Positions 57,202 through 62,434 of a stretch of 64,000 nucleotides of DNA are shown here, in pieces. Below the pieces are notes generated by a model that ran no database searches, was not told the origin of the DNA, and was given only the letters and a program-made list of their open reading frames with translations. The position numbers and the translations under genes were made by a program. Location: positions 1,638 through 65,637 of the forward strand of contig CANQXR010000011.1 of assembly GCA_947627855.1 (NCBI GenBank). The letters run 5' to 3'. Numbering within the stretch: the stretch's first letter is position 1; each line of letters begins with the position of its first letter. Source of the stretch: an uncultured Clostridia bacterium (GTDB lineage: Bacteria; Bacillota; Clostridia; Lachnospirales; CAG-274).

Positions 57202-57613
57202 AACTATCTTCCTTTCTGTAATTTTTATTATAATAATATCCTAAACCGATTCTGTGTGTAAAATATGTTATGAATGTGTGATTTATGTGGAATATTTATG
57301 TCTGTGAAAATAAAAAAGCTTCATAATTGCTCTTAAGCTGCACTGCTTGTATCTGAAGTTGCAGATATCCACTGTAATTACATCTGCTTTTATACATTTT
57401 TTGACCTGTCATTTACCGTTTACTTTACTTCCCCATCTGAAAGCTGTATATTTCTTACAATTTTACAGATTTACGGGCTTGGCGGCTTTTTAAAACAGGC
57501 GGAATTGTTTGAACGGTTTTTTTAGGGATTTTTTTAATTATGCTTGTAATATTTCGTATTAAATGTTAAAATATTAGAAGAATGTTAAAAAACACTGCTT
57601 GGGAGGTAGATTT

Positions 57614-59260
57614 ATGGATTATGTTGGTATGCTTATAACCTTTGCCGGCGGTCTTGGCTTGTTTTTGTACGGCGTAAGCCTTATGTCATCGGGTCTGCAG
57701 AAGGTTGCAGGCGACAAAATGAGAAGAATACTTGCCATTCTTACCAAAAACAGGCTTGTCAGTGTGGGCGTGGGCGCTCTTGTGACGGCTATTATACATT
57801 CGTCTGCGGCTACCACTGTTATGGTCATAGGCTTTATAAATGCCGGTCTGCTTAACCTTATGCAGTCTGTGGGCATTATAATGGGTGCAAATATAGGTAC
57901 TACCATAACAAGCTGGCTTGTTTCATCATCGGAATGGGCGTCCTTTATGGAGCCGCTTACCATGGGGCCTGTTGCAATTGCCATAGGCGCTATCTGCGGT
58001 GTTTTCTTTTCAAAGGGACTTATAAAGAGCCTGAGTGAAATAGTTGTGGGCTTCGGTATGCTCTTTATGGGTATAGGGCTTATGACACAGGGCGCTGCAC
58101 CCCTGGCAGGTCTGCCGGCGTTTTCACGGGCATTTGCGGAGCTTGGCTCCAATCCTTTCCTCGGCGTAGTAACCGGTGCGGTCGTTACCGCAATAATACA
58201 ATCCTCCACGGCTTCGGTAGGTATACTCCAGTCCCTCGCCCTTTCGGGCATAGTCACATGGAACAGTGCCGTATACATAATCATGGGACAGAACATAGGT
58301 ACCTGTGTAACGGCTATCTTCTCGGCAGTAGGTGCTTCAAAGAATGCCAAGGCGGCTGCCTGCATACATCTTATGTTCAATGTGATAGGCTCCGTTATTT
58401 TCAGCGTGCTTGCATATCTGCTTTTCAGATTCGCCCTTGTGGATCTGGGAAATCAGGTTATAACCATAACGGAAATATCCGTTATACACACAGGCTTCAA
58501 TGTGCTTAATACTGTTTTTATGTTCCCATTTGCCAATATTCTTGTTAAGGCAGCCGAAAAGATGACCTCCTTCTTTAAGGAAAACGAGGACGAAGCTGTT
58601 CTTGTACATCTTGACAACAGGCTTTTGGGCACAACGCCTATCGCAATTGAAAACAGCATTAAGGAAATCGTAAGAATGGGCAAAATGTCCCTTGAAAACC
58701 TTATCCTTGCAAGCGATGCACTTTTCGACCACGACAGCGAAAAAATAGAAAAGGTCGATGCAAGAGAGGACAGCATAGACCAGCTTCAGAACACTATAAC
58801 GAGGTTTATGGTTAAAATATGCAACGCTCCGGGCATAAGCATAAAGGAAAACAAGGTCGTTACATCTCTTTTCCATACTGTAAACGATATGGAGAGAATA
58901 GGTGATTACAGCGAAAACCTTGTTGAGTCGGCTCAGTTTATGATGAAGGAAAATCTTGAGTTTTCCGATAAGCAAAAGGAAGAGCTGAGAAAAATGTGCG
59001 ACGAAACCATCTCCTGCGTTAAAAATGCCCTGAATGCCCTTGAATTCAACGACTATACAAGCGTTGAAAGAACGATCAGAAAAGAGCAGAACATAGACGA
59101 TATGGAAAAGAGCTTCAGAAGGCTCCATGTGGAAAGACTTTCCGAAAATTCAGTAGACCCCACAACGGGCATTTCATATCTCGACACCCTCACAAACCTC
59201 GAAAGAGTCGGCGACCATGCCCTTAATGTGGCGCAGGTCGTAATGAGAAGATTCTTATAA
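57614..59260 (+). CDS. Na/Pi cotransporter family protein with C-terminal PhoU-like repeats
   Basis: Duplicated Na_Pi_cotrans blocks (GANIGTT, GQNIGTC). C-terminal PhoU-type helical repeats with ERIGD / ERVGDHA. Start at ATG 57614 behind GGGAGG. Confidence 0.85.
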   Translation: MDYVGMLITFAGGLGLFLYGVSLMSSGLQKVAGDKMRRILAILTKNRLVSVGVGALVTAIIHSSAATTVMVIGFINAGLLNLMQSVGIIMGANIGTTITSWLVSSSEWASFMEPLTMGPVAIAIGAICGVFFSKGLIKSLSEIVVGFGMLFMGIGLMTQGAAPLAGLPAFSRAFAELGSNPFLGVVTGAVVTAIIQSSTASVGILQSLALSGIVTWNSAVYIIMGQNIGTCVTAIFSAVGASKNAKAAACIHLMFNVIGSVIFSVLAYLLFRFALVDLGNQVITITEISVIHTGFNVLNTVFMFPFANILVKAAEKMTSFFKENEDEAVLVHLDNRLLGTTPIAIENSIKEIVRMGKMSLENLILASDALFDHDSEKIEKVDAREDSIDQLQNTITRFMVKICNAPGISIKENKVVTSLFHTVNDMERIGDYSENLVESAQFMMKENLEFSDKQKEELRKMCDETISCVKNALNALEFNDYTSVERTIRKEQNIDDMEKSFRRLHVERLSENSVDPTTGISYLDTLTNLERVGDHALNVAQVVMRRFL

Positions 59261-59301: not shown

Positions 59302-59343
59302 AAAGCCCCTCGGTGAAGCACTTGTCATCGGAGGGGCTTTTTG
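59302..59343. terminator. Terminator hairpin between the Na/Pi transporter gene and the hxlR-like gene
   Basis: aaagcccctc-N19-gaggggcttt followed by ttg; convergent genes on both sides. Confidence 0.65.
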
Positions 59344-59357
59344 CATTCCGCATTCGG

Positions 59358-59687
59358 TTAAAGCATATTTTTATATTCTTTTCCCCATTTTTCCATAGAA
59401 TCGAGTATAGGGCGCATTGTTTCGCCAAGCTCCGAAAGGGAATATTCAACCTTCGGGGGAATCTCGGCGTATACAGTTCTTGTGATTATGCCGTCCGCCT
59501 CCATAGAACGCAGACTATCTGTCAGAACCTTCTGACTTATGCCCTCAAGGGACCTTTTAAGCTCATTGAACCGCCACGGACGCTCTCTTAAATTTCTTAG
59601 TATTAACAGCTTCCATTTGCTGCCTATAAGCTGAACGGTCACGGCGACAGGGCATTCGGGCAATTCTTCCTTCTTAAGCATACACAC
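59358..59687 (-). CDS. HxlR-family winged-helix transcriptional regulator
   Basis: CPVAVTVQLIGSKWKLLILRNL...RFNEL...GISQKVLT..LR.ME.DGII.R is the diagnostic HxlR pattern. Divergent from the peptide operon. Confidence 0.85.
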   Translation of the reverse strand: MCMLKKEELPECPVAVTVQLIGSKWKLLILRNLRERPWRFNELKRSLEGISQKVLTDSLRSMEADGIITRTVYAEIPPKVEYSLSELGETMRPILDSMEKWGKEYKNML

Positions 59688-59875
59688 ACCACCTTTTTAT
59701 TACATTTGAATCTGAATGTATATTAAAATAATAGTGCATAAGTCTGTATTTGTCAACGGTTACATTTTTGTGACTGACTGATAAAAAAGTGCGTACTTGT
59801 TTTGGGGAAAAATTTCCCTTAATATGAATTGTGGGAAGTGAAAAAAATCCCGAAATTACATAAGGAGGAATGAAA

Positions 59876-60022
59876 ATGGCACTTTCAGATTTATACGGCT
59901 GGAACAGAAACAGCAGTAAGGCGGCTCCATCGTCAGCCTGCGGAACAGCCTGTGGTGCCCCTGACAAGCCGGACGACAAACCATCGCCATGCGGCTCTGC
60001 CTGCGGTGCGCCGGACAAATAA
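59876..60022 (+). CDS. 48-aa Cys-rich precursor peptide with tandem ACGX units (candidate RiPP precursor)
   Basis: Not in the ORF track. AAGGAGG at 59862..59868, 7 nt before the ATG. Translation MALSDLYGWNRNSSKAAPSSACGTACGAPDKPDDKPSPCGSACGAPDK*. An 11-residue module C-G-x-A-C-G-A-P-D-K occurs twice. Lies immediately upstream of a radical SAM/SPASM gene. Confidence 0.75.
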   Translation: MALSDLYGWNRNSSKAAPSSACGTACGAPDKPDDKPSPCGSACGAPDK

Positions 60023-60029
60023 TTTTCCG

Positions 60030-60074
60030 CTCCCGACAACAGGACTTTTCCCCTTGTTGTCGGGAGAGCTTTTA
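60030..60074 (+). terminator. Hairpin with short U-tract between precursor and maturase genes (likely partial terminator/attenuator)
   Basis: ctcccgacaaca-N13-tgttgtcgggag (12-bp perfect stem) followed by agctttta. Confidence 0.45.
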
Positions 60075-60091
60075 AGTCACAGGAAAGAGAG

Positions 60092-61132
60092 ATGATACAT
60101 ATGAAGGAATATTTTGCTTTTCAATGGCACATTACGGACGAATGCGACCAAAGATGTAAGCACTGCTATATATTTTCGGAAAATACAGATAAAAAGACGG
60201 ATAATATGACCTATGGGCAAATGAAGGAGGTATTGGCAAACTGCGAGGACTTCTGCATTATGTACGACAGACTGCCCTACTTCTATATTACAGGAGGCGA
60301 CCCACTGCTTAACCCCGACTTCTGGAGGCTTGCGGAGCTTCTGAAAAGCAGGAGCATTCCCTTTGCCATTCTTGGCAACCCTTTTCACCTCACGGAAGAT
60401 GTATGCAGACGGCTGAAGGAAAGCGGCTGTCTGAAATATCAGCTTTCGGTGGACGGCATGAGAAAAACCCACGATTGGTTCAGAAAAAGCGGCTCCTTCG
60501 ACATAACCATGGATAAAATAAGCCTTATCAAAAAAGCAGGTATGAAAGCAGTCGTTATGACCACCGTATCGGGAACAAACATAGACGAAATTCCCGATAT
60601 TACAGACGCCGTTGTCGAAGCCGGAGCGGACGTGTTTGCCTTTGCGAGATATTGTCCCACAAGCAGTGAAAAAAGCGTAAATATAGATCCTTTGCGCTAT
60701 CGCAGACTTCTTGCGGAGTGCGACAGGAAATTCAAGGAATATGAAAAAAAGGACTGCAAAACCTATTTCAGCAGAAAAGACCACCTATGGACACTTTTCA
60801 GATATGAAACGGGAGAATTCACTATTCCCGAAGCTGCCGCAAAGGGTGTTATATACGATGGGTGCAACTGCGGAAACTGCCACCTTACCATTCTGCCCAA
60901 CGGCGACGTTATGGCTTGCAGAAGGGTAAACGGCAGCATATTGGGCAGCGTATTTGAAAACAGACTGGCGGACATATGGGTATGTGAAGCGGAGGAATTC
61001 AGAAACTACGACAAATTCATAAAATGCAGCAAATGTGAATTACTGGCGTGGTGCAGAGGGTGTCCTGCTGTTGCGGCAGGAGCCGGAGGAGATTTTTACG
61101 CTCCCGACCCGCAGTGTTGGAAGGAGGTCTGA
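60092..61132 (+). CDS. Radical SAM / SPASM-domain peptide-modifying enzyme
   Basis: CDQRCKHC (CxxxCxxC) at residues 18-25. C-terminal CNCGNCHLTILPNGDVMAC ... CSKCELLAWCRGC ... DPQC matches the SPASM seven-Cys pattern. 346 aa, no N-terminal RRE-sized extension. ATG 60101 is an alternative start. Confidence 0.9.
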   Translation: MIHMKEYFAFQWHITDECDQRCKHCYIFSENTDKKTDNMTYGQMKEVLANCEDFCIMYDRLPYFYITGGDPLLNPDFWRLAELLKSRSIPFAILGNPFHLTEDVCRRLKESGCLKYQLSVDGMRKTHDWFRKSGSFDITMDKISLIKKAGMKAVVMTTVSGTNIDEIPDITDAVVEAGADVFAFARYCPTSSEKSVNIDPLRYRRLLAECDRKFKEYEKKDCKTYFSRKDHLWTLFRYETGEFTIPEAAAKGVIYDGCNCGNCHLTILPNGDVMACRRVNGSILGSVFENRLADIWVCEAEEFRNYDKFIKCSKCELLAWCRGCPAVAAGAGGDFYAPDPQCWKEV

Positions 61133-61134
61133 AC

Positions 61135-61713
61135 ATGGAGCTTATGGAAATCATAAAAAAACGGCGCTCAATACGCCGATATTCAGACAGACAGATAAGC
61201 CGCAGAGATATGGAAAAAATTATAGAAGCGGGAGCCGCCGCCCCCAACGCAGGAGGAGGACAGAGAAGCATATTGGTCGGAGTGCATAACAGTCGGCTGA
61301 CAACACAAATAGGTCTTATGAATATGAAAAAATTCGACCGCTCCAAGCTTGCAGGCTCCTACGTTTCAAGGGAACAGCCAAGCGTAATAGACGACCCTTC
61401 AATAAGGAACGGATTTTACGGCGCTCCCTCAGTAGTGATTATTTTCGGTCAGAAAAATTTTATGTTCCGTACAGCAGACGCATTCTGCTGCGCCGAAAAT
61501 ATGGTTTTGCAGGCAGCGGAGCTTGACATCGCCTCCTGCATAATTTCAAGAGGAGAAGAAACCTTTTCAGATGAGGAAGGCGAAAAGCTGCTCAGAGAAT
61601 GGGACATACCCGAAAATTATTCCGCCGTATGCTTTGTCATTCTCGGATATACAGACGACAAACAGCCCTCTTCAAAACCCATACGGCAGGGAAGAATAAA
61701 AATTATAGAATGA
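61135..61713 (+). CDS. Nitroreductase-family flavoprotein
   Basis: IIKKRRSIRRYSD, AAPNAGGGQ and other nitroreductase-fold motifs. ATG 61135 lies 2 nt after the rSAM stop, with AAGGAGG inside the rSAM 3' end. The ORF-track start 61048 overlaps the rSAM gene. Confidence 0.85.
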   Translation: MELMEIIKKRRSIRRYSDRQISRRDMEKIIEAGAAAPNAGGGQRSILVGVHNSRLTTQIGLMNMKKFDRSKLAGSYVSREQPSVIDDPSIRNGFYGAPSVVIIFGQKNFMFRTADAFCCAENMVLQAAELDIASCIISRGEETFSDEEGEKLLREWDIPENYSAVCFVILGYTDDKQPSSKPIRQGRIKIIE

Positions 61714-61722
61714 GGTGATTAT

Positions 61723-62343
61723 ATGAACGCAGAAACCTGTTTAAAAAAGCTTCAATATATAGGCGTGCTTGCATTTGCAACAGTTGACGGACAGGGATAT
61801 CCCCAAGTACGCAACATAAGCGCAATACACTATGAGCCGGACTCCCTGTATTTTTTCACCGCAAAGGGAAAGGCATTCTGTCGGGAGCTTATTAAAAGCA
61901 GACACGTTCAGATATTGGGATATACAAAATATAAGGAAATGATACGCCTTTCGGCTGACGCTGAGCCTGTCCGTGAGGAGGAACAGCAGAAATGGACAGA
62001 TATAATATTTGAAGAACAGCCCTATCTTTACAATATATATCCCGACGACACCCGTCTGATGGGAGGAATGGTTTTCCGCATATCAGAGGGTGAAATCGAA
62101 TATTTCAATCTCGGTGTGAACCCAATTTTCAGAGAAAAATATGCCATGGGCGGCAGAAAGTCCCTGTTCAGGGGATATTACGGCATAACCGATAAATGTA
62201 CAGGCTGCGGAAAATGTGTCGTAAGCTGTCCCCAACACTGCATTGAAAAGGGAAAGCCCGCCGTAATAAACAGTATACACTGTCTGAGCTGCGGCATATG
62301 CTTTGACATCTGCCCCGTAAAAGCCATAGAAAGATTGGACTGA
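61723..62343 (+). CDS. PNPOx-like split-barrel domain fused to a 2x[4Fe-4S] ferredoxin domain
   Basis: N-terminal VLAFATVDGQGYPQVR (PNPOx-like). C-terminal CTGCGKCVVSCP and CLSCGICFDICP ferredoxin motifs. 9-nt gap to the nitroreductase gene. Confidence 0.8.
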   Translation: MNAETCLKKLQYIGVLAFATVDGQGYPQVRNISAIHYEPDSLYFFTAKGKAFCRELIKSRHVQILGYTKYKEMIRLSADAEPVREEEQQKWTDIIFEEQPYLYNIYPDDTRLMGGMVFRISEGEIEYFNLGVNPIFREKYAMGGRKSLFRGYYGITDKCTGCGKCVVSCPQHCIEKGKPAVINSIHCLSCGICFDICPVKAIERLD

Positions 62344-62391
62344 AAATTTCATTTATTTATACTGCTTAACGTACATAAAAAAGACTTTTTG

Positions 62392-62428
62392 ACAGGAGGC
62401 GAGAACAGGCTCAGCCTCCTGTGTTTTA
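62392..62428. terminator. Terminator closing the peptide operon (convergent with murC)
   Basis: acaggaggc-N13-gcctcctgt followed by gtttta. Confidence 0.7.
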
Positions 62429-62434
62429 TAAATA

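Follow-up and report, generated by a model that had tools for sequence, protein, structure and literature searches.

Examination of a 64,000-nucleotide stretch of contig CANQXR010000011.1 (positions 1,638 to 65,637) from an uncultured Clostridia bacterium, hereafter the window, reveals a compact locus in which a gene for an HxlR-type regulator is transcribed divergently from four co-directional genes. These code, in order, for a 48-residue Cys-rich peptide, a radical S-adenosylmethionine (SAM) enzyme with a SPASM domain, a nitroreductase-fold flavoprotein and a protein that joins a PNPOx/Nim-like split barrel to a ferredoxin module of two [4Fe-4S] clusters (PNPOx-ferredoxin; Table 1). The regulator and peptide genes are separated by an intergenic region of 188 nt (59688-59875) and the peptide and radical SAM genes by a spacer of 69 nt, and the gaps that follow the radical SAM and nitroreductase genes measure 2 nt and 9 nt, respectively. 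The open reading frames (ORFs), gaps, divergent spacing, ribosome-binding site and terminator-like bounds are all present as described in an initial annotation of this DNA, and Pfam bears out its domain calls for the regulator, the radical SAM/SPASM enzyme, the nitroreductase and the PNPOx-ferredoxin. That annotation also referred to NCBIfam families named for an ACGX-repeat peptide and for the radical SAM/SPASM protein of an ACGX system. Both families exist, and comparison with their hidden Markov models places the peptide in TIGR04341 (41.9 bits, cutoff 28, E 1.2e-10) and the enzyme in TIGR04340 (572.8 bits, cutoff 400, aligned over the full length, 1-341/341). Given that both models score above cutoff, the locus is a typical member of a curated family known from bioinformatics alone; it has all the defining features of the NCBIfam/TIGRFAMs ACGX system, and we found no difference from it. 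We propose, with a probability of about 0.55, that it is a canonical ACGX system, namely a stress-regulated operon that would make and post-translationally modify a peptide of Cys-containing repeats. The system is not new in kind, as the ACGX family is already catalogued, with the status of a 'hypothetical equivalog' defined by sequence only. The initial annotation knew of no reported product structure or function and, in agreement with this, full-text literature searches recovered no paper mentioning the ACGX system, its product or its role. As far as can be told, the present analysis adds to the family definitions the regulatory and accessory context, candidate operators, rules for the peptide sequence, a kinship of the enzyme with SbtM and a linkage with Macro-domain and SirTM genes.

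The window peptide (MALSDLYGWNRNSSKAAPSSACGTACGAPDKPDDKPSPCGSACGAPDK) is constituted from a leader, MALSDLYGW..., and two units, ACGTACGAPDKP and PCGSACGAPDK, and carries the motifs ACGT-ACGA and PCGS-ACGA. The frame opens with the ATG at 59876, which a ribosome-binding site, AAGGAGGA (59862-59869), precedes by 6 nt. The ORF listing extends the peptide to an ATG at 59870; this start is disfavoured, given that it abuts the ribosome-binding site and that homologues instead begin with MALSNL. The 48-codon frame contains no in-frame TGA before its TAA stop, i.e. no selenocysteine codon. We compared 160 related loci and took gene-context counts from the 80 best genome loci. In 74 of these 80, an ORF with the same leader and repeats is found upstream of the radical SAM gene, with most of the misses being truncated contigs; the peptide singled out by the initial annotation is thus conserved in orthologous loci, and a chance small ORF is ruled out by this conservation together with the TIGR04341 match. 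The orthologous peptides range from 30 to 142 residues and contain 2 to 15 cysteines, with the reading frame maintained despite the variation in length.

A set of 75 peptides with 489 cysteines was used to derive the sequence rules. The leader, with the consensus M-A-L-S-N-L-x-G-W and an invariant Trp, is separated by about 10 variable residues from a core that contains 1 to more than 9 units approximating ACG(S/T)ACGA(G/S)DKP(E/A)EKPA and ends in ...CGAGDK. The cysteines are preceded by Ala in 94% and followed by Gly in 99% of cases; the position four residues after the Cys (+4) is occupied by another Cys in 44%, and by Asp in 253 of the remaining 273 (93%) in this core clade. Lys residues flank each repeat unit, and the core is devoid of aromatic residues, which leaves Cys as the only plausible reactive side chain. 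In the window the two units have diverged, such that the repeat is evident at the protein level and Tandem Repeats Finder reports no DNA repeat in the peptide gene. In one locus from a metagenome-assembled genome (L161, 2667-2975) the peptide ORF changes frame after the first repeat, likely through collapse of the repeat array during assembly; hence, repeat counts from such genomes may be underestimates.

Gene-neighborhood comparisons show conservation of a set of co-directional genes, for the peptide, the radical SAM/SPASM enzyme, an oxidoreductase and, in most cases, the PNPOx-ferredoxin, with hxlR as a conserved divergent neighbor. Downstream counts were restricted to the 66 loci with at least 3.5 kb of downstream DNA and to oxidoreductase genes that lie no more than 3.5 kb from the radical SAM gene and share its strand. 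An oxidoreductase is present in 62 of the 66, usually as the very next gene, and a PNPOx-ferredoxin (51-70% identity) is found on the same strand in 39, so that the nitroreductase and PNPOx-ferredoxin grouped with the enzyme in the initial annotation are genuine conserved operon partners. Likewise, the divergent position of the regulator is a conserved feature: of the 69 loci whose sequence reaches far enough upstream, 59 carry hxlR no more than 2.6 kb upstream and 57 have it in divergent orientation, and the encoded regulators are 60-83% identical to that of the window. The same operon slot next to the enzyme is filled by three alternative oxidoreductases in different genomes, namely a nitroreductase of the type seen in the window (type A, 24/66), a second nitroreductase about 40% identical to it (type B, 23/66) and a Zn-dependent alcohol dehydrogenase (Zn-ADH) of the medium-chain dehydrogenase/reductase type (15/66). 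The best PDB match of the type A nitroreductase is 3ek3, and the N-terminal domain of the PNPOx-ferredoxin matches the NimA/NimC family (2ig6). In-frame fusions of the radical SAM enzyme with the type A nitroreductase, 553 aa in length and with the linker DTEKDNVKRTP, are represented by four protein clusters (P0005-P0008), and one such fusion (L161, 3001-4662) belongs to a canonical locus, alongside the genes for HxlR, the peptide and the PNPOx-ferredoxin. Furthermore, 38 of the 66 loci carry, downstream of the ACGX operon and in the same orientation, a gene for a Macro-domain protein and/or a SirTM-type sirtuin (PF01661, 135.8 bits, for the Macro domain of related loci; PDB 5a3a, E 1e-78, for the sirtuin). 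This pair is absent from the window. Where both are present, the Macro and SirTM genes usually overlap by 43-52 nt and lie downstream of the PNPOx-ferredoxin gene (e.g. L001, 8350-10000; L025; L031; L052). Genes for proteases, exporters or immunity proteins do not recur among the 80 neighborhoods, the commonest transporter-like cluster being seen in 9 of the 80, on either strand.

Homologues of the radical SAM enzyme form more than 3,555 protein clusters at 90% identity (E <= 1e-20), of which the best 120 are all about 70% identical. A scan of one genome per species gave at least 577 matches, nearly all in gut Lachnospiraceae, Oscillospiraceae and other Clostridia, and a library of representatives at 50% identity contained 354 of them at E <= 1e-30, in a continuum down to about 30% identity. 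Across families of Clostridia the enzyme, the leader and the regulator are 70-80% identical. A scan of metagenomes recovered the same gene set around radical SAM enzymes only 51-65% identical to that of the window, indicating that the association of the module is old. Among the uncharacterised systems for peptide maturation in gut Clostridia, ACGX ranks as one of the more widespread.

The enzyme contains the radical SAM (PF04055, 80.8 bits) and SPASM (PF13186, 33.6 bits) domains and probably starts at the ATG at 60101, which would give a protein of 343 aa, given that homologues begin with MKEYF. Its CX3CX2C motif is formed by C18, C22 and C25, and a seven-Cys SPASM motif by C258, C276, C312, C315, C321, C324 and C342; alignments show that all 10 of these are invariant across the wider enzyme family. 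Within the ACGX clade, in contrast to the wider family, six other cysteines (C51, C55, C105, C113, C260 and C263) never vary; they may constitute an extra metal site or disulfides. As the initial annotation stated, the enzyme has no N-terminal RiPP recognition element (RRE; RiPP, ribosomally synthesised and post-translationally modified peptide). This is not unusual in itself, as the 330-position PapB model aligns with it end to end. The best-scoring model of a characterised enzyme is that of SbtM (TIGR04082, 171.4 bits, cutoff 350), which matches residues 6-342 but covers only model positions 197-515; across ten divergent relatives SbtM is always the second-best model, with 158-217 bits. It is followed by AhbD (127.9 bits, cutoff 500), the NirJ-type models (93-105 bits, cutoffs 500-650, with NirJ at 102.3 against 515 and NirJ2 at 104.6 against 500), MftC (83.7, cutoff 265), PapB (62.9, cutoff 340), StsB (55.3, cutoff 625), the anaerobic sulfatase-maturating enzymes (anSME; 51.4, cutoff 349) and SkfB (49.6, cutoff 300). 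Each of the models being below its cutoff, the enzyme, which would work in the manner of other radical SAM/SPASM peptide maturases, lies outside the PapB, CteB, sactisynthase, SbtM, MftC, AhbD/NirJ and anSME families. The possibility raised by the initial annotation that it might group with AhbD/NirJ or the sulfatase maturases is likewise not supported, since all of these score far below cutoff, and an AhbD/NirJ-like cofactor enzyme is ruled out by the scores along with the co-occurrence of the peptide. Sequence searches against the PDB gave only weak matches, to SkfB (1.7e-11), CteB (2e-9), BlsE and SuiB. Several ACGX-like radical SAM proteins (P0127, P0129, P0133, P0160 and P0172) carry N-terminal extensions of 200-470 residues in which no Pfam domain was found, and another (P0251) carries a methyltransferase domain.

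The regulator belongs to the HxlR (MarR/DUF24) type, as do the thiol-stress regulators YodB and QsrR, and probably starts at an ATG 6 nt inside its 109-codon ORF. Its best NCBIfam matches are the redox regulators RrpB/RrpA, below cutoff, and its single conserved cysteine, Cys12, is located in an LPxCPV motif and retained in 94% of 62 orthologues. Alignment of 54 HxlR-peptide intergenic regions on one common word revealed two operator-like motifs at conserved, fixed spacing from the peptide start. The inverted repeat GTTAC-N6-GTGAC, which abuts the hxlR promoter, takes the conserved form gGTTAC-aaaaag-GTGACt when 50 intergenic regions are aligned on the anchor, and occurs once in the window, against 0.09 expected by chance. 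The second motif is a near-palindrome, AAGTGCGTACTT, whose exact 12-mer is unique in the window; it contains the 10-mer GTGCGTACTT, which 50 of the 54 regions possess and from which the peptide ATG lies a median of 89 nt (range 70-114) downstream. In the anchored alignment a TAnAAT-like box recurs at a constant offset, about 30 nt from the 10-mer on the side of the peptide gene, which suggests that the 10-mer overlaps the -35 element of the peptide promoter; this putative promoter was missed by a stricter consensus scan. In a parallel case, HypR, another DUF24/HxlR protein, senses disulfide stress via a conserved N-terminal Cys14 and activates a nitroreductase (PMC3351151). The HypR-HypO regulon thus resembles the ACGX locus in its small HxlR-fold regulator, N-terminal sensing Cys, inverted-repeat operator and nitroreductase/quinone-reductase target, whereas the HypR box (GTATCAAAATTGATAC) differs from the ACGX candidate operator and the regulons of HypR, YodB and QsrR are not known to contain a peptide/radical SAM pair. 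By analogy we infer that the ACGX HxlR binds both motifs and senses thiol-reactive compounds.

Candidate RNA elements accompany the peptide gene. A stem-loop in the 5'-untranslated region (5'-UTR) occupies a constant position in 82% of 50 loci (z < -1.5 relative to shuffled sequences), the stems differing in sequence. RNAalifold recovered no consensus structure from the 5'-UTRs, as the variable loops defeat alignment; in many loci the stem-loop is followed by CTGAATA. It may be an mRNA-stabilising or a regulatory element. Nearly all of the 75 peptide-radical SAM spacers contain a GC-rich hairpin, with a clear T-run in only 7; that of the window has a weak T-run, was not called a terminator by the scan and is probably a partial terminator or an mRNA-stabilising element. 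Many spacers (e.g. L015, L029, L052, L053 and L071) contain a second small conserved hairpin, CTCGGTnnAnCCGATTT(T), just upstream of the radical SAM start, which is absent from the spacer of the window. The strong ribosome-binding site, the 5' stem-loop and the hairpin after the ORF suggest a stable, highly translated peptide message and a lower expression of the enzymes.

Table 1. Genes and candidate regulatory features of the ACGX locus (window coordinates).
Feature	Position	Strand	Basis
Left-boundary GC-rich hairpin AAGCCCCTC...GAGGGGCTT, T-runs either side	59303-59342	.	Sequence read
hxlR regulator gene	59358-59687	-	109 aa; Pfam PF01638 112.9 bits
Sigma-70-like promoter for hxlR, TTGACA-17-TATTAT, 11/12 matches	59728-59756	-	Consensus scan
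Inverted repeat GTTAC-N6-GTGAC, candidate HxlR operator	59759-59774	.	Anchored alignment
Near-palindrome AAGTGCGTACTT with 10-mer GTGCGTACTT, second candidate operator	59787-59798	.	Intergenic alignment
Inferred peptide/operon promoter: -35-like TTGTTT, 17-nt spacer, -10 TAATAT	59797-59825	+	Anchored alignment
5'-UTR stem-loop, core GGGA...TCCC, right after the inferred -10	59825-59860	+	Per-sequence folding
ACGX-repeat precursor peptide gene	59876-60022	+	48 aa; TIGR04341 41.9 bits
Peptide-radical SAM hairpin, 14-bp stem, tail AGCTTTTAAG	60030-60066	+	Minimum free energy -27.1 kcal/mol, z -4.2
Radical SAM/SPASM enzyme gene	60092-61132	+	346 aa; TIGR04340 572.8 bits
Nitroreductase-fold flavoprotein gene (type A)	61135-61713	+	192 aa; PF00881 73.9 bits
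PNPOx/Nim-like split-barrel + 2x[4Fe-4S] ferredoxin fusion gene	61723-62343	+	206 aa; PNPOx_N 35.5 bits, Fer4 42.6 bits
Right-boundary terminator-like hairpin ACAGGCTCAGCCTCCTGT + GTTTTATA	62405-62430 (hairpin 62405-62422, then GTTTTAT)	+	Terminator scan

Together, these features permit a model of how such a stress-regulated operon might work. HxlR would bind GTTAC-N6-GTGAC and AAGTGCGTACTT, sense thiol-reactive oxidants or electrophiles via Cys12 and switch the operon, and the signals around the peptide ORF would ensure a large excess of peptide over enzyme. The radical SAM enzyme would then recognise the short leader M-A-L-S-N/D-L-x-G-W without the help of an RRE, and an oxidative reaction would be initiated by a 5'-deoxyadenosyl radical at each A-C-G unit, the electrons being handled by the SPASM clusters. 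The nitroreductase or Zn-ADH and the PNPOx-ferredoxin could supply the enzyme or its product with electrons or recycle them: these flavoproteins may reduce the cluster of the radical SAM enzyme, re-reduce the product, or just detoxify the inducing compounds, and the in-frame fusion argues for some direct link between the nitroreductase and the radical SAM enzyme. The product would stay in the cell, as a peptide that buffers thiols, redox state or soft metals in a dose set by the number of repeats, rather than act as a secreted antibiotic.

More divergent relatives differ in their leaders and cores. Divergent ACGX-type leaders follow the pattern ...W...(R/H)(S/T)AQ(S/G)(Y/F)(M/L)..., and the related cores of L104, L113 and L124 are without Asp (ACGSACGAAKPEEKP...ACGSACGAK), with Lys, Glu or Gly at +4 or an ...ACGAK end. 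A sister clade of radical SAM/SPASM enzymes (L081-L088, L094 and L095), 41-47% identical and without the HxlR/reductase context, has precursors with a ...FW..RRSAQSFL... leader and dense Cys/Ser/Gly C-termini, e.g. ...CECLSGCTSCGTSSCASGCMDN, with acid-free cores. This clade appears to be likewise uncharacterised; the neighborhood of L094 holds only housekeeping genes, a transposase and a methyltransferase. The substrate feature that is constant across the enzyme family is only a Cys flanked by small residues.

With respect to the chemistry, these comparisons narrow the candidates to two main options. We tentatively lean towards a Cys-local, four-electron heterocyclisation to a 5-thiooxazole, as catalyzed by SbtM, an enzyme that removes 4 H from a Cys or Sec within a peptide to yield a thio(seleno)oxazole, as summarised from Lewis et al. 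2021 in PMC11002830. A Cys-local reaction is favored by the uniform A-C-G context with either Cys or Asp at +4, by the loss of Asp in some clades and by the acid-free cores of the sister clade. Moreover, SbtM is the closest characterised model and acts on a peptide Cys, starting at the Cys itself, and the relatives that lack a conserved acceptor residue are consistent with such a reaction. SbtM differs in its additional N-terminal residues (about 196) and in precursors that, at least in the summary given by PMC11002830, carry selenocysteine together with an insertion element, whereas the window peptide lacks a selenocysteine codon; tandem repeats, which make up the ACGX peptide, are not described for SbtM precursors. 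In substrate design only, the ACGX peptide resembles the thiooxazole metallophores ('captophorins': fontiphorin, oxazolin and bufferins) made by multinuclear non-haem iron-dependent oxidative (MNIO) enzymes. Their precursors are built of x-C-G units in tandem (EGKCG), a small residue being favored after the Cys; every Cys is converted with loss of 4 H per repeat, and the products act in copper or oxidative stress (bioRxiv 10.1101/2025.11.18.689057). They are made in Pseudomonadota by O2-dependent non-haem iron enzymes, with no radical SAM enzyme and no homology to the locus in the window. If the thiooxazole assignment were true, the ACGX system would provide an O2-independent way of making a group whose known sources are mainly O2-dependent enzymes. 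The other option is a thioether that links the Cys sulfur to the beta-carbon of Asp within C-x3-D, as in the ranthipeptide freyrasin, made from PapA by PapB; a thioether-bearing RiPP of the ranthipeptide/sactipeptide type was the view taken in the initial annotation. This option is only slightly less probable: C-x3-D, with its Asp after 253 of the 273 cysteines that lack a Cys at +4, is exactly the motif of PapB, a compact radical SAM/SPASM enzyme whose end-to-end alignment points to the same architecture and which makes six in-line Cys-X3-Asp/Glu thioethers, Glu also being accepted (PMC9413430); and SkfB and CteB, to which the enzyme is closest by sequence among PDB entries, are thioether synthases. 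Against it stand the PapB score and the still lower scores of the sactipeptide models, with SbtM and AhbD both higher; the 44% of ACGX cysteines that have a Cys, not an acid, at +4; the cores of L104, L113 and L124 and of the sister clade; and the fact that the flanking Ala (94%) and Gly (99%) are stricter than the Asp, which reaches 93% of a subset. Accordingly, of the original assignment the pairing of a peptide with a radical SAM/SPASM enzyme stands, as a pair of ACGX families, and its filing with the sactipeptides or ranthipeptides is not established, with PapB far below its cutoff, SbtM scoring better and the Asp, 93% conserved in the core clade, being lost or substituted in some related ones. 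An HxlR-type regulator and redox partners are not known as features of pap clusters. The SCIFF/CteB systems that yield thermocellin-type ranthipeptides also combine a short Cys-rich peptide with a SPASM maturase, are widespread in Clostridia, lack a dedicated exporter and are of unclear physiological role. CteB is the second-best PDB sequence match, at low similarity, but it has an N-terminal RRE and about 450 aa in contrast to the 346 aa of the window enzyme, and SCIFF is a single 45-aa unit with six cysteines in contrast to the variable tandem array of ACGX. A reaction other than these two is rather unlikely.

As for the role, the thiol-stress-type regulator, the obligatory yet interchangeable NAD(P)H/flavin oxidoreductase, the Nim-like PNPOx-ferredoxin and the frequent SirTM/Macro genes argue for an inducible bulk buffer within the cell and against a secreted antibiotic, as do the lack of export and processing genes and the combination of strong purifying selection on enzyme, leader and regulator with free variation in the number of units. 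In other words, the ACGX operon is built like a thiol/redox-stress regulon and not like a bacteriocin cluster, and its product is probably intracellular. We consider it improbable that the peptide, or units excised from it, is a bacteriocin or quorum signal exported by transporters and proteases encoded elsewhere. The order of peptide, hairpin and maturase is typical of bacteriocin operons, multi-core precursors occur in other RiPP classes and the Lys residues flanking each unit are possible cleavage sites; but the absence of any recurring protease, ATP-binding cassette or MATE exporter or immunity gene in the 80 neighborhoods, together with a regulator of thiol-stress-sensing type and partners that are reductases, argues against a classical secreted antimicrobial, and the strong conservation of enzyme, leader and regulator across families of Clostridia is unlike that of diversifying antimicrobial peptides. 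A peptide-derived redox cofactor or electron carrier akin to mycofactocin or pyrroloquinoline quinone (PQQ), used by the nitroreductase, Zn-ADH and PNPOx-ferredoxin, would account for the oxidoreductase in 62 of the 66 loci and for the radical SAM-nitroreductase fusion; the mycofactocin and PQQ maturases are also SPASM enzymes, and mycofactocin systems co-occur with dehydrogenases. Nevertheless, such a cofactor is improbable, as MftC, at 83.7 bits, is far below its cutoff, no conserved peptidase is present to free a small cofactor, the variable number of units (1 to more than 9) would be odd for a cofactor precursor, and three interchangeable oxidoreductase folds would hardly each bind one specific cofactor. 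Finally, the locus might be an ordinary HxlR detoxification regulon with an incidental small ORF and a radical SAM enzyme acting on a small molecule or cofactor in the manner of AhbD/NirJ. HxlR with a nitroreductase or quinone reductase is a known type of regulon (PMC3351151) and AhbD (128 bits) and NirJ (102-105 bits) are among the better matches, but their scores are about a quarter or less of the cutoffs, the peptide ORF is directly upstream of the radical SAM gene in 74 of the 80 loci with its frame kept over 30-142 aa and matches a curated model, and the sister-clade enzymes too adjoin Cys-rich peptides; this explanation is close to refuted by the co-occurrence data.

Several points weigh against the stress-regulated, peptide-modifying operon that we favor, and against the chemistry and role that we attach to it. 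The score for SbtM, 171 bits, is well below its own cutoff of 350, and a 196-residue N-terminal region of SbtM is missing here. That AhbD, a non-peptide enzyme, comes near to SbtM with 128 bits indicates that enzyme similarity is a weak guide to chemistry, and a thioether acceptor accounts better than heterocyclisation for the Asp at +4 being so strongly conserved. The AlphaFold2 model of the enzyme, built from an alignment of 19 sequences, has a mean pLDDT (predicted local distance difference test) of 68, falling below 50 from residue 291 in the SPASM half, and Foldseek searches with it against the PDB retrieve generic radical SAM folds (SkfB, BlsE, SuiB, HydE and anSME) that are uninformative on the chemistry. 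The presence of three unrelated or distant oxidoreductases in one slot fits a generic detoxification regulon, so that these enzymes may have no connection with the peptide, and the lack of a nearby exporter does not prove that the product is intracellular.

The linkage with the Macro and SirTM genes suggests a parallel with the SirTM/Zn-Macro/GcvH-L/LplA 'extended operon' of Staphylococcus and Streptococcus. The ACGX loci share with it the Macro-SirTM pair, after 38 of the 66 operons, and both systems comprise a small thiol-bearing carrier, a modifying enzyme, flavin oxidoreductases and a link to oxidative stress (PMC11490716); in contrast to the extended operon, ACGX loci are without GcvH-L or LplA, and the window is without the pair. 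As, according to PMC11490716, no targets of SirTM/Zn-Macro are known beyond the GcvH-L operon, this linkage offers a candidate answer to the question of what 'lone' SirTM/Zn-Macro pairs act upon, although a link between the ACGX peptide and ADP-ribosylation is speculation. Combining these threads, one might picture a radical SAM-made thiooxazole, or another thiol-bearing heterocycle, at every A-C-G as the anaerobes' counterpart of the O2-dependent metallophores: an intracellular array that scavenges soft metals and oxidants with a capacity given by the repeat number, is induced by thiol stress and kept reduced by the flavoproteins, and, in its modified form with an Asp beside each site, serves as the target of the 'lone' SirTM/Zn-Macro pairs, paralleling lipoyl-GcvH-L of Staphylococcus. 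Taken as a whole, this composite picture is doubtful.

Searches with Rfam gave no match in the locus or in the whole window. The GC content of the locus is that of its flanks and the flanking genes are not conserved neighbors, and there is no sign of a mobile island or of horizontal transfer. On the left, the boundary hairpin sits between hxlR and a convergent gene (57599-59260) for a 553-aa protein in which a Na/Pi-cotransporter domain is fused to a PhoU domain, and the terminator scan places a terminator-like site on the minus strand, at 59319-59305, inside this hairpin. On the right, a convergent murC (TIGR01082, 467.7 bits) lies beyond the boundary hairpin; neither the Na/Pi-PhoU gene nor murC is a conserved neighbor at related ACGX loci.

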